Shown: piece after piece, positions 1,513 to 26,881 of the stretch | Numbering within the stretch: position 1 is the stretch's first letter | How the letters are laid out: the number at the start of each line of letters is the position of its first letter | Source: Cupriavidus necator | GTDB taxonomy: Bacteria > Pseudomonadota > Gammaproteobacteria > Burkholderiales > Burkholderiaceae | Direction: 5' to 3' | DNA length: 32,000 nt | Assembly (NCBI RefSeq): GCF_016127575.1 | Contig: NZ_CP066019.1 | Coordinates: 1,590,001-1,622,000, forward strand | Translations under genes and position numbers: made by a program | The notes under the pieces: model-generated | Told to the model about the DNA's origin: nothing | Database searches by the model: none | What the model saw: only the letters and a program-made list of their open reading frames with translations

Positions 1513-2832
1513 TCAGGCTGGAACCTGCGTCCCCGCCGCCGCCGTCTCCTTCGAGAAAAGACTCCTGGAAGTCGCTACATGGCTGGCCAGCACCGGCCGC
1601 AAGACCATGATCGCCAGGAAGGCCGCGCTCAGGTCCATGGCCGCCACCGTGTAGAGGACCGTCGACCAGGTGCCGCTCGCCTCCATCATCAGGTTGCCGA
1701 CCGGCACGAACAGTGCGCCGATGCCCTTGGCCGTGTAGAGCACGCCATAGATCTTGCCGATGTGCTTGGTGCCGAAGGCATCGCCGGCCAGTGCCGAGAA
1801 CAGCGAGTAGACCTCGCCCCAGGCCAGGAACACCACGCCCGACAGGATCAGGAAGGCGTACGGGTTGCTGCCGAAGTAGCCGAGCGCGATGATGCCAAGG
1901 CCTTCCAGGGTGAAGGCGATGACCATGGTCTTCTCACGGCCGATGTTGTCCGAGATCCAGCCGAACAACGGACGCGAGATGCCGTTCATGATCCGGTCCA
2001 GCATCAGCGCGAGCGGCAGTGCGGCCATCACGAAGAAGTGCAGGTCGACCTTGAACTCCTTCACACCCAGGTCCTTGGCGATGACGCCAAGCTGGGCCAC
2101 GGCCATCATGCCGCCGGTGACGACCAGGATGAACATCACAAACATCAGCCAGAACAGCTTGGTGGACATCGCTTCCTTGAGCGTGTAGTCGCGCGTGGCC
2201 TGGACCAGCTTCTGCGATGCCTTCACCTCGCTACCCTTCGGTGCGCGCAGGAACCACGCCGCGACAAAGGCGAGTCCGCCCTGCAGCAGGCCGAAGAACA
2301 GGAAGGTGTGCTGGAAGCCCTGCGACTCGATCATGGCCGCGATGGGCAGGATGGTTGCCGCGGAACCGGCGCCGTAACCGCCCGCGGTCAGGCCCACCGC
2401 AAGGCCACGGCGGTCCGGGAACCACTTGAGCGCGTTGTTGATGCAGGTGGCGTAGATCGAGCCCACGCCAAGGCCGCCAACGGCTGCGCCGACGTAGAAG
2501 CCCATCAGGGTGGTGGCCTGGGAGTTGATGCACCACGCCGCGCCGATGAAGACCGCGCCGAAGGCGACCATCATGCGCGGGCCGAACTTGTCGATGAAGT
2601 AGCCTTCGATCGGCGCCAGCCAGGTCTGCACAAGGACGAAGACGGTGAAGGCGATCTGGATGCTGGCGCGCGACCAGCCGTAGGTACTCTGGATTTCAGG
2701 GACGAAAAGGGTCCAGGCGTATTGAATATTGGCGGTGGCGATCATGCAGATCACACCGACGATCAATTGCAGCCAGCGTGTGCCTTCCGGGACCTGGCGA
2801 TTAGCGCCCAGCGCTGCGGACGGATTACTCAT
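1513..2832 (-). CDS. MFS transporter, oxalate/formate antiporter (OFA) family
   Basis: 439-aa ORF that is hydrophobic throughout, with about 12 TM-like segments. The N-terminal 'RWLQLIVGVICMIATANIQYAWTLFVPEI' is typical of OFA/OxlT-like MFS proteins. AGGAG (rc of ctcct, 2841-2845) lies ~8 nt upstream of the ATG at 2832. Confidence 0.8.
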   Translation of the reverse strand: MSNPSAALGANRQVPEGTRWLQLIVGVICMIATANIQYAWTLFVPEIQSTYGWSRASIQIAFTVFVLVQTWLAPIEGYFIDKFGPRMMVAFGAVFIGAAWCINSQATTLMGFYVGAAVGGLGVGSIYATCINNALKWFPDRRGLAVGLTAGGYGAGSAATILPIAAMIESQGFQHTFLFFGLLQGGLAFVAAWFLRAPKGSEVKASQKLVQATRDYTLKEAMSTKLFWLMFVMFILVVTGGMMAVAQLGVIAKDLGVKEFKVDLHFFVMAALPLALMLDRIMNGISRPLFGWISDNIGREKTMVIAFTLEGLGIIALGYFGSNPYAFLILSGVVFLAWGEVYSLFSALAGDAFGTKHIGKIYGVLYTAKGIGALFVPVGNLMMEASGTWSTVLYTVAAMDLSAAFLAIMVLRPVLASHVATSRSLFSKETAAAGTQVPA

Positions 2833-3268
2833 TTGCGCGCTCCTTGAATCATTTGGCCATTCAGTTGCGGGGGTGCGGGCGGGTATGCGGACGCACTGCG
2901 CCTCAGCATAAGGGTGGCTGCTGGCATTTCATGTCTCCTGTGTCATTGGCATTTATTTGCCTCTTATTCCGACGCCGACCTGAGGTCTCCGCCCTCACCT
3001 CTCTCAAGTTCGGAGTGGCGATGGAATACACAGTATGTGATATATCAGGTAAGTCAAGGGAAAGGCATGGCAGGGTTTTCACTGAATTTATGATTGCGAA
3101 GGATGGGTTCCGGATATTCACGCTGAAAATGCATCATCGCCCCTGGAAGGAGGCCCGGCCGGGCACCGCCGGATAACCATGAAACCCTTTACTGGAGCCA
3201 CTTCCGGGCGCGTCGCCGCCGATAGATGAGGGTTCGTTTTGAATGGATGAGGAAAACGACTTAAATCC

Positions 3269-3362
3269 CATCATTACAAATTTGTCATACCCGGAAGCCG
3301 TCCGTTCCGGCCAGAACAGCATGATTACGAAAATGTCATGATTACAGAAATGTCATGATTTT
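3269..3362. repeat. 17-nt tandem repeat CATGATTAC(R)(R)AAATGT, about 2.4 head-to-tail copies at 3320-3362 plus a degenerate copy at 3269-3288
   Basis: Read directly: c-atgattacgaaaatgt / c-atgattacagaaatgt / c-atgatt at 3320-3360. A related copy, catcattacaaatttgtcat, sits at 3269-3288. All lie in the AT-rich spacer. Confidence 0.7.
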
Positions 3363-3430
3363 GACCGCACCGAATGATGAACGAAATAAATCAGAGCGAT
3401 TAATACGGCATAAAACCGCACCGGCGAGCC

Positions 3431-3462
3431 AAAAAAAATGCCCGCAGGCAAGCCTGGCGGGC
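3431..3462 (-). terminator. rho-independent terminator readable only on the minus strand (orphan)
   Basis: The minus strand reads GCCCGC-C-AGG CTTG CCT GCGGGC (9 bp with one bulge, tetraloop), followed by A then T8 (plus-strand A8 at 3431-3438). There is no T-run on the plus-strand side. Confidence 0.65.
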
Positions 3463-3573
3463 GTAGGCATGATGCGTGACATCAGCCGCAGCATGTAGAT
3501 GCAGTTATAGGCGATTATTCGGGCCAGACAAATAAATAAAAACGCTTAGCGCGGGGTGGCGGTCAGGGATTCT

Positions 3574-3616
3574 CGAAAACCCTGAGGGATTTACCGAAAA
3601 ACCCTGAGCGCGATTT
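3574..3616. repeat. direct repeat CGAAAA(A)CCCTGAG..GATTT x2
   Basis: cgaaaaccctgagggattt (3574-3592) and cgaaaaaccctgagcgcgattt (3595-3616). The first copy is also part of the inverted repeat TCAGGG-N11-CCCTGA. Confidence 0.6.
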
Positions 3617-3730
3617 GGCGAGATTCAGCAGATGGCAACTTGTCATGATGGATTTCGATTTGCTGGCCAGATGCGCTGCTGCCCGGGTCGGCAGGCAAGC
3701 ACTGTAGACAAGATCATCCAGGCTGCCCAT

Positions 3731-3870
3731 GAAAGTAGATGAAACGGTAAGTACTGTAGAACTCCTGGAAGCCCGGCGGCCAGGTTGCCCATCCATTGCT
3801 ATAGATAGAATGGAAAGCAGCAGGCATAGAAGTAGATCTTTTGGTAAGTTCTGTAGAAACTCTGGTAAGC
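3731..3870. repeat. pair of ~42-nt imperfect direct repeats immediately upstream of fic
   Basis: Copy A, 3731-3772: gaaagtagatgaaacggtaagtactgtagaactcctggaagc. Copy B, 3829-3870: gaagtagatcttttggtaagttctgtagaaactctggtaagc. Shared blocks are GTAGAT, GGTAAGT, CTGTAGAA and CTC(C)TGG. A third CTGTAGA lies near 3703. Confidence 0.65.
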
Positions 3871-3907
3871 TCCCGAGCAAACCGGCATCCGGAAATTGCG
3901 ACCATCT

Positions 3908-5431
3908 ATGTCTCATGCGCCACTTGGCTACGACGCGCTTATCCGCAAGTTCGGGCTGCGCGTGCCGCCGCTGCGCTCGACGTCCGCCCTTGCCGACAAG
4001 ACCGGGGTCCTCAGCACGCACACCGGACCGGACGGCACCACGCGCACCGTGTACCCAAGGAACCGCTACCGCGGCGGCGATACGACCGTGGACCACCTGA
4101 CTTTCGCGCTGAAGAAGGAGCAGCTCGACCTGACCGTGCTGGCGGCGCTGTTCGAACATGCGCCAGCGGTGCAGGCCGTACGGGAGTGGCTGGCGGCCAC
4201 CCCGACCTCGCGCTATGCGAGGCTGAGCGCGTTCTATGCCAAATGGCTTGCCGGAGCGCAATTCGACTACAAGCTGCCGGCCGGGGCGCCCAGGGTACTG
4301 GCGCTGGACGAGAGCCGGTACCTGACCGGCCCGGCAACGCCGGACCTGCAGTTCGGCATCCAGAACAACCACCTCGGCCCGGCCGCGTTTTGCCCCCTGG
4401 TGCGCCGCACCGAGAAGCTGGCGCAGTACATTGCCGCCGACCTCCCCGGCCGCGTGGCCGCGGCCATCAAGCGGCTCGAGCCAGAGTTGCTGGCGCGCGC
4501 GGTGGACTACCTCTACCTCGCGGAGACACGATCGACCTACTCCATCGAGCACGAGATCCCCGATAACCAGCGGGTTGCCAAGTTCAGGCGGCTGCTGGAA
4601 TATGCCGGCAATCCCGCGCCGTTGACCGAAGCCCAGCTGTGCGAGTGGCAGAACGAAATCATCTCGGGGCTGCGCGCCGAATTCTCCTACCGCGACAAGC
4701 AGAACTGGCTGTCCCGCGGCGGGCGCATGCGCAACATCGCTGACTATATTCCCCCGCCGCCCGGGCAGCTTGGCGCGATGATGGACGGGATTGCCGCGGT
4801 CGCGGGCCTGGTCGAGGCACAGGCGGCGAACCCCATCGTGGCCGCGGCGTGCGTATCGTTTGGCTTTGTCTTCGCCCACCCGTTCTACGACGGCAACGGC
4901 CGGCTCCATCGATTCCTCATCCACCATTTGCTGCGCCAGGCCGGTGTCACGCCAGATGGCGTCGTGCTGCCGGTGTCGGCACGGATGCTCAAGCAGATCG
5001 ATACCTATGCCGCGCTGCTGAAGTCCTATTCCGCCCCGCGGACGGCCCTGCTCAACTACGCGCTGGATTCGGACAGCGACACGATCCTGATCAAGTCGCC
5101 ACAGCCCGGCTGGCTTTACGCATCCTTTGATGCAACAGCGCTGTGCGAATTCGTCTTCGAATGCATCGAGCAGTGCGTCGAGCAGGACCTTGCGCAGGAG
5201 ATCCAGTACCTGCGCGCTTACGATGCCAGCGTCGCACGCCTGGAAAGCTGGCTCGACCTGCGCCAGTCACGCCTGTCGAACCTGATCGACCTGATCGTCC
5301 AGAACCACGGCGAGCTGTCCAGGCGCAAGCGCAAGCTGTTCGAAGACATCACGGACGACGAGCTCGCCCGCATTGAAGCCGTCGTGCGCGACGAATTCAC
5401 GGAATACCTCGAGCTCAACGGCAGCCGCTGA
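3908..5431 (+). CDS. Fic/DOC family protein (putative AMPylase/adenylyltransferase) with an extended N-terminus
   Basis: Canonical Fic motif HPFxDGNGRxxR is present as 'HPFYDGNGRLHR'. Upstream, 'AETRSTYSIEHE' looks like an inhibitory-helix motif, and 'YRDKQNWLSRGG...DYIPPPPGQL' is typical of Fic_N-type proteins. Track ORF is 3896..5431 (TTG at 3896); the first ATG is at 3908. Confidence 0.85.
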   Translation: MSHAPLGYDALIRKFGLRVPPLRSTSALADKTGVLSTHTGPDGTTRTVYPRNRYRGGDTTVDHLTFALKKEQLDLTVLAALFEHAPAVQAVREWLAATPTSRYARLSAFYAKWLAGAQFDYKLPAGAPRVLALDESRYLTGPATPDLQFGIQNNHLGPAAFCPLVRRTEKLAQYIAADLPGRVAAAIKRLEPELLARAVDYLYLAETRSTYSIEHEIPDNQRVAKFRRLLEYAGNPAPLTEAQLCEWQNEIISGLRAEFSYRDKQNWLSRGGRMRNIADYIPPPPGQLGAMMDGIAAVAGLVEAQAANPIVAAACVSFGFVFAHPFYDGNGRLHRFLIHHLLRQAGVTPDGVVLPVSARMLKQIDTYAALLKSYSAPRTALLNYALDSDSDTILIKSPQPGWLYASFDATALCEFVFECIEQCVEQDLAQEIQYLRAYDASVARLESWLDLRQSRLSNLIDLIVQNHGELSRRKRKLFEDITDDELARIEAVVRDEFTEYLELNGSR

Positions 5432-5458
5432 AGCGGCGGCACAGCATTGGCACTGCCC

Positions 5459-5483
5459 GGTGCCGCCACCATGGGGCGGCACC
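5459..5483 (+). terminator. hairpin downstream of fic (possible terminator)
   Basis: GGTGCCGCC-ACCATGG-GGCGGCACC is a perfect 9-bp stem, 28 nt after the fic stop. There is no clear U-tract. Confidence 0.35.
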
Positions 5484-5704
5484 GGCGCCACTATGTATCG
5501 CTTTGTATCCCGGGCCACGGCAGACATGAAAGCTTGCACGGATGCCGGGAAGCGGAAACAACCCGGATACGTGCGGACGGTGGAATGCGTCTATCGCCAA
5601 CACCGGGAGTTCTCCGCCATGTCCGTCGTCGCCATCCATCCGCCGCCGCCCTGCCCCTGCTATCGTGCCTGCCACGACACCGCGCACGCCGACGGAAGCC
5701 ATCC

Positions 5705-6406
5705 ATGATCGACGCCTTCCTTGCCTTTGCCGCCGGCGTGCTGACTATTGCCTCGCCCTGTGTGCTGCCGGTGCTGCCCATGCTGCTGGCCGGCTCGGTG
5801 GGCGAATCCGGCCGGCTGCGCCCGCTGGCGATAGCGCTTGGCTTCGTCAGCGCGTTTTCCGCGCTGGGCATAGTCTTTGGCGCACTGTCCAGCGCCTTCA
5901 GCGAAGCCCCAGGCGTGGTGCGCAACGCGGCCATCCTGTTGCTGCTGGGTGCCGGCCTGGCACGGCTCTGGCCGGCGGGCTTCGAGCGCCTGGCGGCCCC
6001 GTTAGCCGGCGTGGTCGACCGCCTGGCGGGCGCCGGCGGCCGGACCGGCACCGGCGTGGCCGGCGGCTTTGTGCTGGGCATGACGCTGGGCGCGGTGTGG
6101 ACCCCGTGCGCCGGGCCGGTGCTGGCGTCGATCCTCGCGCTGGTGGCCAAGGCGCAAGACCTGCATCGCGCCGCCGGCCTGCTGGCGCTGTTCGCGGCTG
6201 GCGCGGCCATCCCGATGCTGGGCATTGCCTATGGCGGCCAGTTCGCCACCACTCACGTGCGCCGGCTGGCGCGTCACACGCACCGGCTGCAGCAAGGCTT
6301 CGGCGTGCTGGTGGTGGCGACCGCCATCGCCATGTACTTCCAGTACGACACCCTTGCCGTCGCCTGGCTGACCTCCCTTTTCCCTGCCTCCCAACCTGGA
6401 GCCTGA
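5705..6406 (+). CDS. cytochrome c biogenesis CcdA/DsbD-like transmembrane thiol:disulfide electron transporter
   Basis: Both conserved membrane-embedded cysteine motifs are present: 'IASPCVLPVLP' and 'VWTPCAGPVLA'. The protein is hydrophobic. The track ORF starts at 5447, but that 86-aa extension is R/H-rich and not protein-like; the ATG at 5705 starts 'MIDAFLAFAAGV'. Confidence 0.8.
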   Translation: MIDAFLAFAAGVLTIASPCVLPVLPMLLAGSVGESGRLRPLAIALGFVSAFSALGIVFGALSSAFSEAPGVVRNAAILLLLGAGLARLWPAGFERLAAPLAGVVDRLAGAGGRTGTGVAGGFVLGMTLGAVWTPCAGPVLASILALVAKAQDLHRAAGLLALFAAGAAIPMLGIAYGGQFATTHVRRLARHTHRLQQGFGVLVVATAIAMYFQYDTLAVAWLTSLFPASQPGA

Positions 6407-6409
6407 ACC

Positions 6410-6928
6410 ATGCATCGCTTGCTTCGTACCCTGCTTGCCACTACCGCCATCGTCGCCGCCCAGCATGCCGCCGCCGCCCCTGCCGACTATGGCAAGGCGC
6501 CGGAATTCACCGGCATCGACAAGTGGCTCAACTCTGAACCGCTGACCGTTGCCGGGCTGCGCGGCAAGGTCGTGCTGGTCGATTTCTGGACCTATAGCTG
6601 CATCAACTGCATCAACACGCTGCCCCATGTGCGTCAGTGGTACGACAAATACCGCGACAAGGGCCTGGTCGTGGTCGGCGTCCACACCCCGGAGTTCCCC
6701 TTCGAGAAGTCCACCGCCAACGTGCAGGCAGCGCTCAAGCGCTTCGATATCCGCTACCCGGTAGCGCAGGACAACGCCTATGCCACCTGGAACGCCTGGC
6801 GCAACCAGTACTGGCCGGCGCTCTACCTGGTCGACGCCAACGGCACCGTGGTCTACAAGCATTTTGGCGAAGGGAATTACGCCCAGACCGAAGCGGCCAT
6901 TCAGAAGGCGCTGGGCAAGAACAAGTAA
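6410..6928 (+). CDS. periplasmic thioredoxin-like (redoxin / DipZ C-terminal-like) protein
   Basis: Signal peptide 'MHRLLRTLLATTAIVAAQHAAAA'. CxxC motif in 'FWTYSCINCINTLP'. The start lies 3 nt after the ccdA-like stop, suggesting translational coupling. Confidence 0.8.
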   Translation: MHRLLRTLLATTAIVAAQHAAAAPADYGKAPEFTGIDKWLNSEPLTVAGLRGKVVLVDFWTYSCINCINTLPHVRQWYDKYRDKGLVVVGVHTPEFPFEKSTANVQAALKRFDIRYPVAQDNAYATWNAWRNQYWPALYLVDANGTVVYKHFGEGNYAQTEAAIQKALGKNK

Positions 6929-6988
6929 GCCTGCCATATCGCTTACAAGCGACCATTGAGCGCGAATGGCGAACGAGCCTGCCGCGCG

Positions 6989-7016
6989 CTGGGCCGTGCT
7001 CTCCGGCACGGCCCAG
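6989..7016 (+). terminator. hairpin after the thioredoxin-like gene
   Basis: CTGGGCCGTGC-tctccg-GCACGGCCCAG is a perfect 11-bp stem. There is no strong U-tract. Confidence 0.45.
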
Positions 7017-7101
7017 GCCTTGGAGCCTGTTCTCGCTTCCAAGACACATCCGAGCCGGTTCCCCGGCACACCTTACGAAAATTCAGATTCCCCAATCTCT
7101 A

Positions 7102-7128
7102 GTTAATAGGAATCATTCTGATTATAAT
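7102..7128 (+). promoter_or_regulatory. candidate Fur box in an AT-rich promoter region
   Basis: gttaataggaatcattctgattataat contains the AATCATT core and GATTAT/ATAAT hexamers of the Fur consensus GATAATGATAATCATTATC. By hand it matches roughly 13 of 19 positions. It lies ~60 nt upstream of the TonB-dependent receptor start. Confidence 0.4.
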
Positions 7129-7184
7129 TCGCGGGGTTTTCAAAAGCACATTAAACACATCACTACGTTCGCCTGACCATAACC

Positions 7185-9479
7185 ATGCAAACCGCAACGC
7201 GCTCAGTCACCCTGGAGGGGCCGGCCGGCCGCTTCCGGGTCCGTCCGCTCGCCCTTCTCATGGCCGCCATCGGCGCGGGCACTCCGCTGCTGTCAGAAGC
7301 ACAGGAGGTGGCCGCCGGCGCCGCCGTGGCACAAACCGGGACGTCCGGTGCGGGGGCGAAGCAGGAAGGCCCGACCGCTAAGGCCGACGGCGGCGAGCTG
7401 AATGCGGTGGAGGTCAGGGTCGACCGGATCAAGAGCGATCTCGTCAGCCCGACGCGCCAGGTGACGGTGCTGGAGCGCGAGGAAATCGAGGAGCTGAAGG
7501 TGGGCTCCACCAATCTCGCGACCATGCTGAGCAAGCTGATCCCGGGCATGGCGGACTCCAGCCGCACGGTCACGGACTTCGGCCAGACGCTGCGCGGGCG
7601 CGGCACGCTGATCCTGGTGGATGGCATTCCGCTCAACACCAACCGGGATTCGGCGCGCAACCTCGCCACCATCGATTCCAGCAACATCGAGAAGATCGAA
7701 GTCATGCGCGGCAGCAGCGCGATCTATGGCGCCGGCGCCAACGGCGGCATTATCGCGATCACCACGCGGCCCGCGGGCGGCGCGCCCAGCGCGGATACCA
7801 CGGTGACGCTCGGCACCCCGCTGACGCGGCTGAGCAAGGAAGGGCTCAGCGCCAATGTCCAGCAGCATTTTTCAGGCAGCCAGGGGCCGATCGACTACGC
7901 GTTCCACCTCGGCGCGCAGCGTATCGGCGGCTCCTACGACGCGCACGGCCACCGCATCGCGCCGGAGCCCAGCCAGGGCGACCTGTTCGATTCCAACGTC
8001 TACAACGTCAGCGGCAAGCTGGGCTGGCGCATCGACAGCCAGCAGCGCATCGAACTGAGCGTGAGCCAGTACCAGGCCAAGCAGAACACCGACTACGCCT
8101 CCGATCCGTCGGTGGCCAGGCTGACGCCGGGCACCGCCGCGGCGCGGGCGATCAAGGGGCTGCAGCTGGAAAACCAGAACGAACTGCGCAACACCGTGGT
8201 CAATCTGGGCTACCAGAACCTGGACCTGCTCGGCAGCACGGTGTCGACGCAGATCTACTACCGCGACTACTTCACCCGCTTCCCCCCGTTCGATGCGCGC
8301 GCGGTGGCCACGCGTGGCGGCAATGTGGACCAGGTCAGCCAGAACAGCGACGTGTTCGGCGGGCGCCTGACCATCAGCACCCCGCTGGGTGCCGACAAGA
8401 AGACCAAGCTGCTGTGGGGCGCTGACTACAACCAGGAGCGCAGCGACATGCCGCTCGACGTGTTCGATCCGCGCGCCTACGACCAGAGCGGCGGGCTGGT
8501 CTTCAACAAGACCGGTTCGCTGACCTACATGCCGCCGCTGACCACCCGCAGCGGCGGGATCTTCGGGCAGCTTCAGCACAAGTTCAACGAGCAGTGGTCG
8601 ATGGAAGGCGGCGCGCGCTATGAACGCGCCAGCGCCACGTTCGACGACTTCGTGCCGCTGTCGCAATCGCGGGTCAGCAACCCGGTCGCGGTCCAGGGCG
8701 GCACCGTCAACTACGGCGCGTGGCTCTTCAATATCGGCGGTGCGTACGCGCCGGTGAAGAACCAGGAGTTCTATGCCTCGTTCGGCCAGGGCTTCCAGTT
8801 GCCCGATATCGGCCTGCAGATCCGCAATGCGCGGCCGGGCTTCAATATCAATTCGTCGAGCCTTGAGCCGGTCAAGACCAACAACTATGAAATCGGCTGG
8901 CGCGGCGCATTCGGCAATACGATGGCGAGCCTGGCGCTGTTCTACACCACCTCGCAGCTGGGCGACGTGCAGAGCTTCAACAACGGCCTGATCCTGACCC
9001 GGACCAAGGAACGCATCGCAGGCGTTGAGGCTTCCGCCGACTACCTGAGCGACAGCGAGACCTGGGGCGCCGGCGGCACGTTCACCTGGATCAACGGCCG
9101 CGAGCAGCCGCAAGGCAGCAGCAGCTTCCAGAACATGACGGGCTATCGCATCCCGCCGCTGAAGCTGACCGCCTACGTCCAGTACCGGCCGATCAGCACT
9201 TGGAGCAACCGCCTGCAGGTGACCTACTACGGCGGCCGCGACTACCGGCTCAACGACCAGAACAGCTTCGGGCGGCGCGAGGTCAGCAGCTACACCACCG
9301 TCGACCTGATCAGCCGCTACCAGGTCAGCAAGAAGGACACGATCACGGTGGGGATCGAGAACCTGTTCAACCGCTACTACTACCCGTTGTACAGCCAGCT
9401 GATGCGCAACAGCAATAACACCAGCCGCCTGCCGGCTGCGGGCATCACGCTGACCGCGATGTACCAGCACCGCTGGTAA
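7185..9479 (+). CDS. TonB-dependent outer-membrane receptor (siderophore/metal-chelate type)
   Basis: 764 aa. It has a signal peptide, a plug-domain signature 'LILVDGIPLNTNRDS...IEKIEVMRGSSAIYGAGANGGII', a long G/Y/N-rich beta-barrel-like region, and a C-terminal aromatic residue '...YQHRW'. Confidence 0.9.
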   Translation: MQTATRSVTLEGPAGRFRVRPLALLMAAIGAGTPLLSEAQEVAAGAAVAQTGTSGAGAKQEGPTAKADGGELNAVEVRVDRIKSDLVSPTRQVTVLEREEIEELKVGSTNLATMLSKLIPGMADSSRTVTDFGQTLRGRGTLILVDGIPLNTNRDSARNLATIDSSNIEKIEVMRGSSAIYGAGANGGIIAITTRPAGGAPSADTTVTLGTPLTRLSKEGLSANVQQHFSGSQGPIDYAFHLGAQRIGGSYDAHGHRIAPEPSQGDLFDSNVYNVSGKLGWRIDSQQRIELSVSQYQAKQNTDYASDPSVARLTPGTAAARAIKGLQLENQNELRNTVVNLGYQNLDLLGSTVSTQIYYRDYFTRFPPFDARAVATRGGNVDQVSQNSDVFGGRLTISTPLGADKKTKLLWGADYNQERSDMPLDVFDPRAYDQSGGLVFNKTGSLTYMPPLTTRSGGIFGQLQHKFNEQWSMEGGARYERASATFDDFVPLSQSRVSNPVAVQGGTVNYGAWLFNIGGAYAPVKNQEFYASFGQGFQLPDIGLQIRNARPGFNINSSSLEPVKTNNYEIGWRGAFGNTMASLALFYTTSQLGDVQSFNNGLILTRTKERIAGVEASADYLSDSETWGAGGTFTWINGREQPQGSSSFQNMTGYRIPPLKLTAYVQYRPISTWSNRLQVTYYGGRDYRLNDQNSFGRREVSSYTTVDLISRYQVSKKDTITVGIENLFNRYYYPLYSQLMRNSNNTSRLPAAGITLTAMYQHRW

Positions 9480-11196: not shown

Positions 11197-11790
11197 CTAG
11201 CGTGCGCCGCCTCGCGCGGCCGCCCCGCCCCCTGGCGCGGGCGCCTTCAGCAGCGGGTAGGGATTGATCGCCCCGCCCGCGGTGTAGACGCCATAGTGCA
11301 GGTGGGGCGGCGTGCCCCGCGCATTGCCGCTTGTGCCGACATAGCCCAGCACCGTGCCGGGCACAATCACGTCGCCGGCACGCACGCCGGCGTAGTCGTC
11401 AAGATGGGCGTAGTAATGCAGCTGGCGCCCGGGCCCCATCACCCACACCACCTTACCGCCCAGCTTGTTGGTGCCCACGCGCGTGACAATGCCCTCGGTA
11501 GCCGACACCACCGGGCGGCCGCGCGGCGCAAAGATATCGATGCCCTCATGCTTGCGTCCGCCGGAGCGCGCGCCGTGCCAGGTATCGCGCAGCGCGCCCG
11601 GGACAATGCCCTGGACCGGCACCGGCAATGCCACCGGCGCGGGGCGGACCGAGAGCCGGGCCACGTAGATCGCGCGTTCGAGTGGCGGCCGCAACCAGGG
11701 CCAGGCGAGCCAGATCAGGCCGATGCTCACCACCAGCCAGATCAGGCCGGCGAAAGCGCGGGGACGGGAAGACAGACGGGAGGCATGCAT
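11197..11790 (-). CDS. M23 family metallopeptidase (LytM domain)
   Basis: HxxxD motif 'HEGIDIF' and HxH motif 'PPHLHYGVY'. There is an N-terminal TM anchor. Confidence 0.85.
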
Positions 11791-11949: not shown

Positions 11950-12249
11950 ATGGATTGTCCGGTGTGCCCGCAAACGCAACTCGTGATGTCCGAACGCCAG
12001 GGCATCGAGATCGATTACTGCCCGAAATGCCGCGGTGTCTGGCTGGACCGGGGCGAACTCGACAAGATCCTTGAGCGCTCCGTGGCAACCGCCCCGGCAC
12101 AGCAGGCGGCGCCGATGCAGCAAATGCCGCAGCAAACCCCGCCCCCGCGACAGGAATACCAGCGCGGCCATGGCGACCGCGACCGGTACTATGAGCGCGA
12201 GCAGAAGCACTATAAGAAGAAGAGCATCTGGCACGAACTGTTCGACTGA
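11950..12249 (+). CDS. TFIIB-type zinc-ribbon domain protein
   Basis: Two CxxC pairs, 'MDCPVCP...' and '...YCPKCRGVWLDRGELDKIL', followed by a Q/P-rich low-complexity tail. GAGGAG lies upstream of the ATG. Confidence 0.75.
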   Translation: MDCPVCPQTQLVMSERQGIEIDYCPKCRGVWLDRGELDKILERSVATAPAQQAAPMQQMPQQTPPPRQEYQRGHGDRDRYYEREQKHYKKKSIWHELFD

Positions 12250-12810: not shown

Positions 12811-14496
12811 TCACGCCGCCTTGCGCCGGCGCCGCGAAGCTTCCGCGGCAGCATCGCGCAACTCAGGCGGCAAGGCACGCAATTCCACGGTGAAGAAGGC
12901 ACGCTCGGCCGGCCGCAGCGCCGGCAACTGGGCGGCCAGCCGCTCCACCGCGGCACACGCTATGGCGGTAGCGCCTTGCTCGTGGGTGAGGTACCAGGCC
13001 GATTCGAGCAGCAGGTTGGCCAGCTGCAACGGCCCCAGCCTGACGTGGCCGGCGTCATGGTCTTCCAGCGCGAACGCAGCCACGGCGGACCAGCGCACGA
13101 AGCCCTTGGCCGGTGCGAACGGCGCGTGGAACGGCCGCAGTGCGTCGACAGCGTCGGCAACGGACAGCGGGCGCTGGCGGCGGAACGCGGCCATGCTGTC
13201 GTTGGCCCTGGCTGGCCGGTCGGACGGCGGGGTATCGGGCCCGCAGCTGCCGCGTGCGATGCGCAACAGGAAGATTGCGTTCCACGCCGTGCCACCGCCC
13301 ACGCCGAACCGGTCGCAGATCCACTCCGACAAGCCCAGCCAGCGCATCGCCTGCCGCTGCACCGCGCTGGCGGACAAGGTGCGCGCGGCATCGACCAGGC
13401 CGTGCTGCCAGAACAGCCACAGGCACAGGCCGATATTGGCCGCGGCATGCTGCACGGCGTCGACGGAATCCGCCTCGTAGGCGGCCTGCAGCGCACCGGC
13501 GAAGGTATCCAGCGCCAGCTGCGCGGCCCGCGCCGTGCCGGCATGACCGGCGCGCATGGCATCGGCCTTGTGCAGCAGCGCTTCGAGGTTCAGCACTTCA
13601 AAGCGCACGCGCGGGTTGTAGCGCACCACCAGGCGCAGTTCCGGATCGGACTGCAGCCCTTCCAGGCCGGCACGCGCGCCGTCGCTGTCACCGCGGGTAT
13701 AGCGCTCCCAGGCCCGCACGATATGCGCCATGGCGCAGAACGCGGGCGTCGCTGCGCCGGCCTCAGCCGCCTGCACCAGGCGGTCGACACGCCTGAGTGC
13801 CGCCCGGCTCTGATCGAGGCGGCCGCAGCGCCGCCACGCCAGGCTTTCCTTGAGCAATGACAGTGCTTGCTGGAATCCGTCGCCGGCACTGCGGCCTGCC
13901 GCGCGGAAGGACTCGGCCACGGCCGAGCCGTGCATGCCCGCGTGGCCGTCCTGCGCGCCGCGCATGGCCTGGGTCAGCTCGCTCCAGAAGGCCATGTCGC
14001 GCATCACGTAGCCGACGCCGTCCGGCTGGCCCGCCGGCGCCGCTTGCGGCCCCGTGGGAAAGCCAAGGCGGCGGGCCAGCGCGGCCGGGCCCAGCGTGCG
14101 CCCGTCCGCCACAAAGCGCAGGTGGCGCGCGCACGCTGCCGTGATCCAGAACGGCCCGCGGCTGCGCTGCGCCGGATTGGCCGCGGCCGGGTCGCGCTGG
14201 CGGTCGGCCCCCCATCCGACCACCACCTGCCAGCGCGCAAAGTCCGCGAACGCGCGCGACACCAGCATGCGCAGGTTGGCCGCCGTCGGGAAGGCGCTGC
14301 GCACCACCGCCGCGGTGACACCGCCCTCCCCGGTGCGATGCGCATGCCAGATGCGCGCCAGCAGCCAGACCGACTGGTAGCGCGCGGGTTGGCCGTCGAC
14401 CCGGTACGGGGCCGACACGTCGATATGGATCGGAGCAGGCGTGGCTGGCATCAGGTAGGCAGGGATCGAGTGAAAACCGCTGGTGGCGCCCGTCAT
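12811..14496 (-). CDS. large uncharacterised protein, candidate transcriptional regulator divergent from class D beta-lactamase (possibly Rp3-like)
   Basis: An uninterrupted 1.9-kb minus-strand ORF with protein-like composition; the antisense frames are R/G/P-rich. The in-frame codons upstream of 14496 include rare ata, gga, cgt, gtt, tgt and ttg, so the start is probably ATG 14496 (561 aa) or ATG 14451 (546 aa). The N-terminal 'YQSVWLLARIWHAHRTGEGGVTAAVVRSAFPTAANLRMLVSRAFADF' resembles an OmpR/SARP-type winged-helix segment. That resemblance is a tentative reading by eye. Confidence 0.65.
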   Translation of the reverse strand: MTGATSGFHSIPAYLMPATPAPIHIDVSAPYRVDGQPARYQSVWLLARIWHAHRTGEGGVTAAVVRSAFPTAANLRMLVSRAFADFARWQVVVGWGADRQRDPAAANPAQRSRGPFWITAACARHLRFVADGRTLGPAALARRLGFPTGPQAAPAGQPDGVGYVMRDMAFWSELTQAMRGAQDGHAGMHGSAVAESFRAAGRSAGDGFQQALSLLKESLAWRRCGRLDQSRAALRRVDRLVQAAEAGAATPAFCAMAHIVRAWERYTRGDSDGARAGLEGLQSDPELRLVVRYNPRVRFEVLNLEALLHKADAMRAGHAGTARAAQLALDTFAGALQAAYEADSVDAVQHAAANIGLCLWLFWQHGLVDAARTLSASAVQRQAMRWLGLSEWICDRFGVGGGTAWNAIFLLRIARGSCGPDTPPSDRPARANDSMAAFRRQRPLSVADAVDALRPFHAPFAPAKGFVRWSAVAAFALEDHDAGHVRLGPLQLANLLLESAWYLTHEQGATAIACAAVERLAAQLPALRPAERAFFTVELRALPPELRDAAAEASRRRRKAA

Positions 14497-14511
14497 GTTA
14501 CGCAAGTTACA

Positions 14512-14550
14512 GCCAACGCGGTTGGCCTTATCCGGACGCTCTCCTATGCT
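14512..14550 (+). promoter_or_regulatory. candidate bla promoter with an overlapping palindrome
   Basis: Palindrome GCCAAC-GCG-GTTGGC at 14512-14526. It overlaps a -35-like TTGGCC (14522-27), followed by a 17-nt spacer and a -10-like TATGCT (14545-50), ~54 nt before the bla ATG. A direct GTTAC..GTTAC repeat lies at 14497-14510. Confidence 0.35.
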
Positions 14551-14603
14551 GCGCACCACGGTCCGGGCCCGGATTGCCATCCCCTCAACTCTTCTGCAAA
14601 GCC

Positions 14604-15443
14604 ATGAACAAACATCTTGCTCGTCTGCTGACACCGATGGCGATCGGCTTCGGCCTGCTCGCCTCCACCCTGCCCGCCCTGGCGGCACCGAAAGAAGTCC
14701 CGCTGGATGCCGCGGCGCTGTTCCGCCAGGCCGATGCCACCGGCACCATGGTGATCTACGACCTGCGGCGCGACCGCATGCTGACCTACAACAAGCCGCG
14801 TGCGGCCACGCAGTACTCGCCGGCGTCGACCTTCAAGATCCTGAACTCGATGATCGGCCTGGAGAGCGGTGCCGTGGCCGACGTCGACCATGACAAGCTG
14901 CCGTGGGACGGCAAGGTCTGGCTGGTCGGCGGCAAGGCTGTCCTGCCCGACGCCTGCAACGCTGACGTGCCGCTGCGCGTCGCCTTCCCGAATTCCTGCG
15001 TGCCGGCCTACCAGGCGCTGGCGCGGCGGGTTGGCAGCGCGGCCTACCAGCGCTACCTGACCGCATCGCACTATGGCAATGCCAACAGCTCCGGCCAGGT
15101 CGACCGCTTCTGGCTGAACGGCACGCTGCAGATCTCCGCCTACCAGCAGATCGACTTCCTGAAGGGCGTGGTACAGCGCACGCTGCCGTTCTCCCCGACC
15201 ACCTTCAAGGCCGTGGACGACATCACTGTGATGGAGCGCACCGCCGGCTACACCCTGCACGCCAAGACCGGGTGGGCCGATTCGGCCAAGCCCGCAGTGG
15301 GCTGGCTGGTGGGCTGGGTTGAGCGTGGCGACGACGACTACCTGTTTGCACTCAATCTCGACATGGTGCAGCCCGAACACGCCAAGGCGCGCATGGAGAT
15401 TGCGCGCGCGGCGCTGCGGCAGGCGGGGGCGTTGCCGGATTGA
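14604..15443 (+). CDS. class D (OXA-type) beta-lactamase
   Basis: All class D motifs are visible: S-T-F-K ('PASTFKILNS'), S-x-V ('NSCVPAY'), Y-G-N ('HYGNANS'), 'FWLNGTLQIS' and K-T-G ('HAKTGWA'). Signal peptide is 'MNKHLARLL...LPALAAP'. The track ORF starts at 14574; ATG 14604 gives the signal peptide. Confidence 0.9.
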   Translation: MNKHLARLLTPMAIGFGLLASTLPALAAPKEVPLDAAALFRQADATGTMVIYDLRRDRMLTYNKPRAATQYSPASTFKILNSMIGLESGAVADVDHDKLPWDGKVWLVGGKAVLPDACNADVPLRVAFPNSCVPAYQALARRVGSAAYQRYLTASHYGNANSSGQVDRFWLNGTLQISAYQQIDFLKGVVQRTLPFSPTTFKAVDDITVMERTAGYTLHAKTGWADSAKPAVGWLVGWVERGDDDYLFALNLDMVQPEHAKARMEIARAALRQAGALPD

Positions 15444-26161: not shown

Positions 26162-26515
26162 ATGCGCGACCGTAGCCTCGACACACTATTGGACCTGGAT
26201 GGGCTCCGCTTCGTCATGGATGACGAAAGCTTGCATTGGGTGAAAATCGTGGTGCGCACCTGCGCTGTCTCGCAGGAACGCCCTCACGGACTGAGGTATT
26301 CGCTGACACTGCATGACAGGATTGGCTGCCGTTTGCTTGGCTTTGACAATGCGCACGGCATCAATGAGGGATCCGGGCCAGGAGTGCGGACGCGCATTGA
26401 ATACGACCACCAGCACATGGCGGCGGGCGTTCGATTCTACGGCTACCACGATGCTTCCACGTTGCTGGAAGATTTCTGGACAGAGGTCGACAAGATCCTG
26501 CAGCAAAAGGAGTGA
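26162..26515 (+). CDS. small protein, DUF6516/TumE-like candidate toxin (tentative)
   Basis: 117-aa ORF in a lower-GC islet. 'LRYSLTLHDRIGCRLLGFDNAHGI....EYDHQH' resembles the 'Y..H....G.L..R.DNAPHH....HHKH' pattern I recall for DUF6516-type proteins, which pair with COG4190-type regulators. The stop abuts the next start. Confidence 0.55.
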   Translation: MRDRSLDTLLDLDGLRFVMDDESLHWVKIVVRTCAVSQERPHGLRYSLTLHDRIGCRLLGFDNAHGINEGSGPGVRTRIEYDHQHMAAGVRFYGYHDASTLLEDFWTEVDKILQQKE

Positions 26516-26881
26516 ATGATGAGCGGCAACCTCAAGATTGGCATCGCCTCACTGGACGACTTCAAGGCCCGCACCATGGCGATCGCCCGCGGCAAACTCA
26601 AGCCCGGAAAGGATGAGCCCAAGGTCTGGTTTCAATCGCTGGACGTGCTGGCAAAGGTCCTGTCCCCAGCCAATCGCCAATTGCTTGCGCTGATCGCGGA
26701 AACGAATCCTGAATCGCTCGAAGAGCTATCGCAAAAAACCGGACGGGCCGTGTCGAACCTGTCGCGGACACTCCGCACGATGGAGGGCTATGGCTTGATT
26801 CACTTTGAACAAGGGCCACGCCGCAGGCTTGCTCCGCGCGTTGACTACAGCGGCGTGGAGCTTGAGCTTGCTTTTCACTAG
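26516..26881 (+). CDS. winged-helix DNA-binding protein (COG4190 / HVO_A0114-like), candidate antitoxin/regulator
   Basis: 121 aa. 'NRQLLALIAETNPESLEELSQKTGRAVSNLSRTLRTMEGYGLI' is a clear wHTH. The N-terminal 'IASLDDFKARTMAIARG' and C-terminal 'PRVDYSGVELEL' match the architecture I recall for this family. The ATG follows the upstream TGA directly. Confidence 0.7.
   Translation: MMSGNLKIGIASLDDFKARTMAIARGKLKPGKDEPKVWFQSLDVLAKVLSPANRQLLALIAETNPESLEELSQKTGRAVSNLSRTLRTMEGYGLIHFEQGPRRRLAPRVDYSGVELELAFH

Follow-up and report, generated by a model that had tools for sequence, protein, structure and literature searches.

A candidate Rp3-family regulator and its proposed GTTAC-N4-GTTAC box beside an OXA-1206-family beta-lactamase gene in Cupriavidus necator

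The gene pair and its control region

In a stretch of 32,000 nucleotides from Cupriavidus necator (contig NZ_CP066019.1, positions 1,590,001 to 1,622,000 of the forward strand, referred to here as the window), a gene for a class D beta-lactamase (bla) lies back to back with a gene for a large protein that appears to belong to the same family as Rp3, a regulator of beta-lactamase genes in Ralstonia. An earlier reading made from the letters of the window and its open reading frames (the sequence-only reading) had described a chromosomal class D gene with all four characteristic motifs, divergent to a large frame, and both genes were indeed found where it placed them. The features of the locus are listed below, in window coordinates.

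12811-14451, minus strand: Rp3-family regulator gene, 546 amino acids (aa), as judged from start-codon analysis, homology and AlphaFold models
14452-14603, no strand: divergent control region, 152 bp, with a phylogenetic footprint over 15 Cupriavidus loci
14497-14510, plus strand: tandem direct repeat GTTACgcaaGTTAC with a 9-bp period, the proposed binding box of the Rp3 family, recognised by conservation
14522-14527, plus strand: -35-like hexamer TTGGCC, 11 nt after the box, within a GGTTGGC that is invariant in Cupriavidus
14545-14550, plus strand: inferred -10-like hexamer TATGCT, separated from the -35-like one by 17 nt and identical in 15 Cupriavidus loci
14551-14578, plus strand: conserved block GCGCACCACGGTCCGGGCCCGGATTGCC containing the 12-bp palindrome TCCGGGCCCGGA at 14562-14573, nearly invariant in Cupriavidus while its flanks diverge
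14604-15443, plus strand: OXA-1206-family class D beta-lactamase gene, 279 aa, matching NCBIfam NF041812 and Pfam Transpeptidase

The bla translation contains the STFK, S-C-V, YGN and KTG motifs and a Sec-type signal peptide that ends at ALA/AP. Besides its Pfam Transpeptidase match, it aligns with positions 1-278 of the 278 in NF041812 at 552.4 bits (cutoff 420), a Cupriavidus model that bears the name 'OXA-1206 family carbapenem-hydrolyzing class D beta-lactamase' in NCBIfam. The gene pair is also found in other Cupriavidus genomes, the closest being that of Cupriavidus sp. UYPR2.512 at 95% identity, and the beta-lactamase gene is, on its sequence and setting, an intrinsic, chromosomal one.

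The divergent frame has a third-position GC content of 0.84, which is of the coding type, and its 546-aa product has a calculated mass of 58.9 kDa and an isoelectric point (pI) of 10.3. The sequence-only reading could assign no motif to this protein apart from two possible ones, discussed below. There is no match in Pfam, in NCBIfam or in a sequence-profile search of the PDB, and ten distant homologues likewise contain no Pfam domain. More than 130 full-length homologues exist, all annotated as 'hypothetical protein', and the family alignment holds many invariant Trp, Arg and Asp positions, indicating purifying selection. An exhaustive hidden Markov model (HMM) search of 1.84 billion cluster representatives returned only 100 clusters at E<=1e-3, so the family is a small one.

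Care must be taken with the start codon of the regulator. The sequence-only reading gave the protein 561 aa and the gap about 107 bp, with the frame opening at ATG 14496, and both figures had to be revised. That ATG abuts, or is part of, a conserved CATGTTAC element, and it opens a long frame in only 12 of the 35 related loci that have it; in the remaining 23 the frame closes after 3-234 codons. Because the alignments of 20 regulator-family proteins begin at M16 of the 561-aa reading and the frame from the corresponding ATG is mostly closed in the related loci, the start is likely to be ATG 14451, which would give a protein of 546 aa and a gap of 152 bp.

Alignment of 15 Cupriavidus intergenic regions reveals three sharp footprints, CATGTTACGCAAGTTACAG, GGTTGGC and CTCTCCTATGCTGCGCAYCACGGTCCGGGCC(C/T)GGATTG, the remainder being unalignable. 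The first of these contains the GTTAC-N4-GTTAC direct repeat, which lies 46 bp from the regulator ATG and at approximately -60 to -47 of the proposed bla promoter, whose predicted start is near 14557. Its pentamers stand head to tail with a period of 9 bp, which argues for two DNA-binding domains bound in tandem. Even when one mismatch is allowed the box occurs only once in the window, where 0.21 occurrences would be expected by chance. No promoter for the regulator gene was recognised by eye in this region. Since the box is so near the regulator ATG that such a promoter must overlap or flank it, autoregulation of the regulator is likely. The block at 14551-14578, directly downstream of the bla -10, contains a perfect palindrome and could be a second operator or the promoter of the regulator gene; loci of C. 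basilensis, Pandoraea and Achromobacter also have GGCC-centred palindromes in comparable places. The palindrome showed no significant RNA hairpin in the bla 5' region (z +1.23), and scanning the window against Rfam at gathering thresholds yielded 0 matches.

The Rp3 family and the GTTAC box across genomes

Rp3 (ORF-RP3) of Ralstonia pickettii is reportedly the activator of both blaOXA-22 and blaOXA-60, as is said to have been described by Girlich in 2006 and 2009. According to a review (PMC3660660), RP3 is located 192 bp upstream of the oxa-60 ATG, its inactivation abolishes the induction of OXA-22 and OXA-60, complementation restores induction, and DNase I footprinting placed the protein on tandem repeats ahead of the two transcription start sites; Rp3 is further covered by a second review (PMC10039701). 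Searching plasmid and megaplasmid records by tblastn with the window regulator gave two Ralstonia matches (34% identity over 87-95% of the query, E 7e-54). In R. wenshanensis p56D2, a 532-aa hypothetical protein is encoded divergently, 191 bp from an annotated OXA-60-family gene, and an R. pickettii assembly encodes a 532-aa protein, 92% identical to it, 187 bp from a divergent gene for a 271-aa class D enzyme. The published Rp3 is presumably of that same length, 532 aa. In BLASTP, residues 2-527 of the window regulator align with residues 3-524 of the R. pickettii protein, the positional orthologue of Rp3, that is over the full length (34% identity, E 2e-68), with higher conservation in the N-terminal domain (41%) than in the rest (34%).

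The likeness to Rp3, which the sequence-only reading had proposed, is thus borne out by full-length homology, by the divergent class D gene and by a tandem repeat common to both Rp3 target promoters. By the available tests, comparison of sequence and synteny supports the window locus as the Rp3/blaOXA-60 architecture in a Cupriavidus genome and as a member of the Rp3 system. The two regulators are of similar size (546 and 532 aa), belong to no recognisable sequence family, are divergent to a class D gene across a gap of 150-190 bp and have a GTTAC tandem repeat upstream of the bla promoter. There are also differences. The window partner is an OXA-1206-family enzyme that is 39% identical to the OXA-60-like enzyme of R. 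pickettii, the R. pickettii OXA-60 promoter has three repeats (GTTACaggcGTTACgcgcGTGAC, or GTTAC-N4-GTTAC-N4-GTGAC) whereas the window has two, and the distance from repeat to -10 differs at the Ralstonia promoter. The Ralstonia OXA-22-family genes are unlinked to the regulator gene and carry an exact GTTACAGCCGTTAC in the same orientation, 93-97 bp before the start codon. Because it is present at both the OXA-60 and the OXA-22 genes of Ralstonia, the box marks both promoters reported as Rp3-footprinted. The OXA-22-like class D gene of R. solanacearum lacks the box, and an Rp3 gene was found neither in its fetched locus nor, by tblastn, on that megaplasmid.

Genome comparison can also reveal what else the regulator is paired with. 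When one genome was scanned for each species, 103 loci came to light and 80 of them were retained; the two Ralstonia loci bring the total to 82, and 80 of these are informative, the other two being cut off at the regulator. The genera represented among the 80 loci are Cupriavidus, Chromobacterium, Iodobacter, Noviherbaspirillum/Herbaspirillum, Achromobacter, Pigmentiphaga, Pusillimonas, Allopusillimonas, Advenella and Pandoraea, together with one record each labelled Pseudomonas and Xenophilus. The immediate upstream divergent gene encodes a beta-lactamase in 75 of the 80 informative loci, and the partners are of four types:

'Main' class D lineage (OXA-1206/60/62-like): most loci
'Alt' class D lineage (OXA-22/42-like): the Cupriavidus basilensis group
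OXA-1-like class D: Iodobacter
Subclass B2 metallo-beta-lactamase (NF033087, >410 bits): four Chromobacterium species and the one record labelled Xenophilus

Because these partners are mechanistically unrelated beta-lactamases, they provide strong guilt-by-association evidence that the regulator's job is beta-lactamase control. In the case of Cupriavidus sp. 30B13 (2126-3859 of its locus, L021), an OXA-22/42-like gene is followed in tandem by an OXA-1206-like gene behind one GTTAC box, an arrangement that suggests a two-enzyme operon under one regulator.

The box occurs exactly once in 75 of the 80 loci, and one additional locus has it with a single mismatch. Every copy lies in the gap between bla and regulator and faces bla, all four partner enzyme types are preceded by it, and no other copy of GTTAC-N4-GTTAC was found in the 760,753 bp of fetched loci. 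Of the five loci whose regulator has no bla neighbour, four, all from Chromobacterium, lack the box and that of P. terrigena keeps it. The promoter geometry is also maintained. Downstream of 73 of 78 boxes there is a TTG/TTT hexamer at a distance of 9-12 nt and then, 16-18 nt further on, a TAnnnT, an arrangement found at 0.13% of random positions, and the TAnnnT begins 33-35 nt past the box in 73 of 78 loci. On these sequence patterns, the GTTAC repeat is very probably the operator of the Rp3 family. In two Pandoraea genomes the regulator and the box have outlasted the enzyme: in P. terrigena (L076) the bla gene is gone, and in P. terrae (L079) it is reduced to a remnant of about 63 aa.

The subclass B2 pairing brings the family into contact with a published induction system. 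In C. violaceum, imipenem, ampicillin and cefoxitin induce CmcB (CV_3150, subclass B2) and AmpC by a factor of 10-20, whereas eight non-beta-lactam antibiotics induce neither, and both enzymes are stably overexpressed in ampD1 mutants (PMC12323641, 2025). Neither gene is adjacent to AmpR or BlrA; the same study left the regulator unknown and did not mention a neighbour from the present family. Two C. violaceum assemblies do encode such a neighbour, a 519-aa family member that is 50% identical to the window regulator and divergent, across a 188-bp gap, to a blaCVI-family gene (604.7 bits, cutoff 575). In the gap of this gene pair (found in GCA_014117535.1 at 5045-7560 of locus L085) lies GTTACGGCAGTTAC, followed by TTTACC and TAGAAT. 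If this neighbour is the cmcB regulator, the family would sense the AmpD-controlled pool of anhydro-muropeptides, and by analogy the published C. violaceum data suggest products of cell-wall recycling as the signal.

Fold, mechanism and alternative explanations

An AlphaFold2 model of the full-length protein, built from a 20-sequence alignment, has a mean predicted local distance difference test score (pLDDT) of 82.8, and the N-terminal domain modelled alone reaches 93.4. In the numbering of the 561-aa form, residues 23-145 are modelled as a basic, mixed alpha/beta domain and residues 160-560 as an all-helical body. The sequence-only reading had guessed that the latter might resemble tetratricopeptide repeats (TPRs), and at the level of fold this holds: Foldseek matches the body to the TPR domain of LGN/Pins (E 1.7e-4, probability 1.0) and to Rap proteins (E 0.008-0.03). 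The Foldseek template modelling (TM) scores are low, 0.27-0.55, and Pfam TPR models give sub-threshold matches in 2 of the 20 members (E 0.47). The modelled C-terminal body is therefore best described as a TPR-like solenoid in fold only, a description that is supported at that level and does not extend to family membership.

The N-terminal domain fared differently. The OmpR/SARP-type winged helix that had been suggested for it does not survive profile comparison, since no Trans_reg_C or BTAD match was obtained at E<=10 in the 20 members. The fetched loci contained no OmpR-family gene, and when the N-domain alignment was compared by hhalign with the DNA-binding domains of seven OmpR-family proteins of E. 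coli, the probability was 0.3%. What Foldseek offers is a weak, generic resemblance to winged-helix proteins, its matches being mostly DNA binders of that kind (SSV1 F-93, MarR, MepR, histone H1, IscR and the SaeR DNA-binding domain). The modelled order of elements, namely small strands, a long helix, a strand, two helices and more strands, is compatible with a winged helix, and the helices singled out in the sequence-only reading, WLLARIWHAHR and NLRMLVSRAFADF, are the first and third in that order. The domain is very basic (pI 11.7) and contains the conserved motifs Q-S-x-W-L-L-x-R, R-M-x-x-S-R-A-F, G-W-G and R-S-x-G-P-F-W, which fits the invariance of the GTTAC box. The claim that the regulator is of neither the AmpR nor the BlaR kind was upheld: Pfam and NCBIfam find no HTH_1 or LysR_substrate domain in it, Pfam finds no Peptidase_M56 or Transpeptidase domain, and there is no transmembrane segment (maximum Kyte-Doolittle average over 19 residues, 1.22).

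Comparison with known systems can help to define what kind of regulator this may be. The AmpR-AmpC system shares the layout of a regulator divergent to an inducible chromosomal beta-lactamase gene, with autoregulation from the shared gap probable in the present case and AmpD dependence probable by analogy with C. violaceum cmcB. However, AmpR belongs to a LysR-type divergon, senses anhydro-MurNAc-peptides and UDP-MurNAc-pentapeptide and reads the LysR T-N11-A dyad, whereas the window regulator has no LysR domains, is about twice the size and has a direct repeat as its candidate operator. The BlrAB/CreBC system of Aeromonas (CphA, AmpC and OXA) likewise answers beta-lactam damage by regulating subclass B2 and class D enzymes, through a response regulator that reads short direct repeats. 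The window protein, by contrast, is soluble and one-component, has neither a receiver domain nor a kinase partner, and its N-terminal domain shares no profile similarity with OmpR-family DNA-binding domains. The features of BlaR1/MecR1, a transmembrane zinc protease with an extracellular class-D-like sensor, are lacking altogether.

Two further families can be compared. In SARP and HilA-type regulators an OmpR-type winged helix precedes a region that is helical or made of TPRs. The window protein would share their layout of an N-terminal DNA-binding domain, reading direct repeats beside the -35, ahead of long helical repeats, but it has neither their domains nor their profile, as noted above, and no SARP or HilA is among the top 50 Foldseek matches of either model. 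The RNPP regulators (Rap, NprR and PlcR) are Gram-positive TPR sensors of short peptides, and their DNA-binding members use an XRE-type helix-turn-helix (HTH). The window solenoid resembles Rap in fold, which by analogy suggests a peptide or muropeptide ligand; in contrast, the N-terminal domain is not an XRE-type HTH and there is no sequence similarity.

Taken together, we favour, with a probability of roughly 0.8, a reading in which the 546-aa protein is a one-component activator of the Rp3 family that acts on the divergent bla gene through the GTTAC box under beta-lactam stress. In this model, the protein would be cytoplasmic, and its basic N-terminal domain would bind the tandem repeat just upstream of a weak sigma-70-type bla promoter. 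The OXA-1206-family gene would be switched on upon beta-lactam damage to the cell wall, and the same binding event would probably also autoregulate the regulator gene. The TPR-like solenoid would receive the signal, most likely a product of peptidoglycan recycling whose level rises under beta-lactam stress or on loss of AmpD. Muropeptide sensing itself, with the solenoid as receptor by analogy with the RNPP sensors, stands at about even odds. The homology, synteny, conserved box, promoter geometry and fold class come from the present analysis, and DNA binding by Rp3, the need for Rp3 in induction and the AmpD dependence in C. violaceum come from the literature on relatives.

Several points weigh against this reading. 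The identity of the regulator with the Ralstonia protein is only 34%, and the R. pickettii protein beside blaOXA-60 is equated with Rp3 from its position, its species and its presumed common length. We infer that the GTTAC repeat is the site footprinted in Ralstonia, and likewise the ligand, the autoregulation and the inducibility in Cupriavidus, where bla expression could be constitutive. The link from ampD1 to the regulator is an indirect one, by analogy. The N-terminal domain has no significant Foldseek match (best E 0.17, TM 0.3-0.48). The promoter hexamers of the window match the consensus at 8 of 12 positions, which is weak, and a generic promoter and terminator scan of 14300-14750 called nothing, although weak, uncalled hexamers are what would be expected of an activator-dependent promoter. 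A review ascribes pH, osmolarity and stationary-phase phenotypes to Rp3. Finally, there are relatives with no beta-lactamase neighbour. In Chromobacterium aquaticum, fluminis, alkanivorans and sp. CV08 (L030, L033, L034 and L061) the regulator has neither an adjacent beta-lactamase gene nor the box; the gene upstream is a GNAT acetyltransferase gene in the same orientation in L030 and L033, and other genes take its place elsewhere. A large Variovorax/Acidovorax clade (Comamonadaceae; L095 and L096), about 47% identical to the Ralstonia protein, also has no beta-lactamase neighbour and no GTTAC box; its regulator is flanked by an upstream 64-aa YjiS-like gene and a divergent LysR gene. Because of this clade and the four Chromobacterium loci, the Rp3 family cannot be exclusively a family of beta-lactamase regulators.

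These same homologues, and the phenotypes ascribed to Rp3, are what an alternative explanation builds on, in which the protein is a broader regulator of envelope stress or stationary phase, bla is only one target among many, and something other than a peptidoglycan fragment is sensed, for example pH, osmolarity or a protein partner bound by the solenoid; TPR solenoids do often bind proteins. We consider this unlikely, since regulators of the window protein's clade have a beta-lactamase partner at 75 of 80 loci, no box turned up outside these in the DNA examined, the window has no second copy, and C. violaceum cmcB responds to beta-lactams and not to the eight other antibiotics. Less likely still is that the gene pair is a conserved relic, with the OXA gene constitutive in Cupriavidus and its neighbour not, or no longer, a regulator. 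A search of the C. gilardii OXA-837 paper found no mention of a regulator, but a relic would hardly keep its box, -35 and -10 invariant across 15 Cupriavidus species while the adjacent non-coding DNA cannot be aligned, nor would its regulator be under clear purifying selection. Least probable of all is that a different factor binds the repeat while the TPR protein, as an adaptor or anti-repressor, has an indirect role and makes no DNA contact, for although the N-terminal fold lacks a significant match to a known DNA-binding domain, that domain is highly basic, the presence of the box tracks that of the regulator, and the Rp3 footprint is reported on the tandem repeats of both Ralstonia promoters.

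The activator reading can be extended from this locus to the family. The induction of chromosomal beta-lactamases is mainly understood through AmpR and BlrAB/CreBC, and the Rp3 family might represent a third general Gram-negative route beside them: a one-component, structurally unclassified regulator (a TPR-like solenoid that binds muropeptides, preceded by a basic winged-helix-like domain of a novel kind) together with a portable GTTAC-N4-GTTAC promoter cassette that can drive a class D gene, from any of three lineages, or a subclass B2 gene. We put forward this extension tentatively, at slightly worse than even odds. If it is true, the family member beside cmcB would be the missing C. violaceum regulator, possibly also of the co-induced ampC. 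In the literature searched, nothing was found on OXA-1206 or on Rp3 homologues outside Ralstonia, and the family-wide picture, the operator consensus with its fixed geometry, the B2 pairing and the description of the fold appear to be absent from it.

The locus and its relatives make the Rp3 family tractable, as there is now a diverse alignment, confident structural models and a candidate operator with a fixed promoter geometry, and they connect the family with a carbapenemase of subclass B2 for which the regulator was reported as unknown in 2025. Opportunistic pathogens with intrinsic enzymes that hydrolyse carbapenems are found in Achromobacter, Pandoraea, Ralstonia, Cupriavidus and Chromobacterium. 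A common regulator and box would be a shared target for blocking induction, and the box would serve as a genomic marker of inducible beta-lactamase genes.

Chromosomal surroundings in the window

The genes around the bla/regulator pair are ordinary chromosomal ones. They include genes for a TonB-dependent receptor, a xanthine/uracil permease, an M23 peptidase, a ROK regulator with a sugar ABC transporter, glucose-6-phosphate dehydrogenase and phosphoglucose isomerase; among these flanking genes of the window no mobile element adjoins bla. The M23 peptidase gene (11197-11790, minus strand) and a gene for a 99-aa zinc-ribbon protein (11950-12249, plus strand) lie just past the 3' end of the regulator.

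Two other places in the window deserve mention. At 26162-26881 a TumE-like toxin frame is followed by an HVO_A0114/HTH frame, a putative toxin-antitoxin pair lying in an islet of low GC content (0.575, compared with about 0.68 in the flanks). The lowest GC content in the window (0.517) is found at 3001-4000, adjoining a 511-aa Fic/DOC-domain gene at 3896-5431, and this stretch and gene (3001-5431) may be a horizontally acquired islet.

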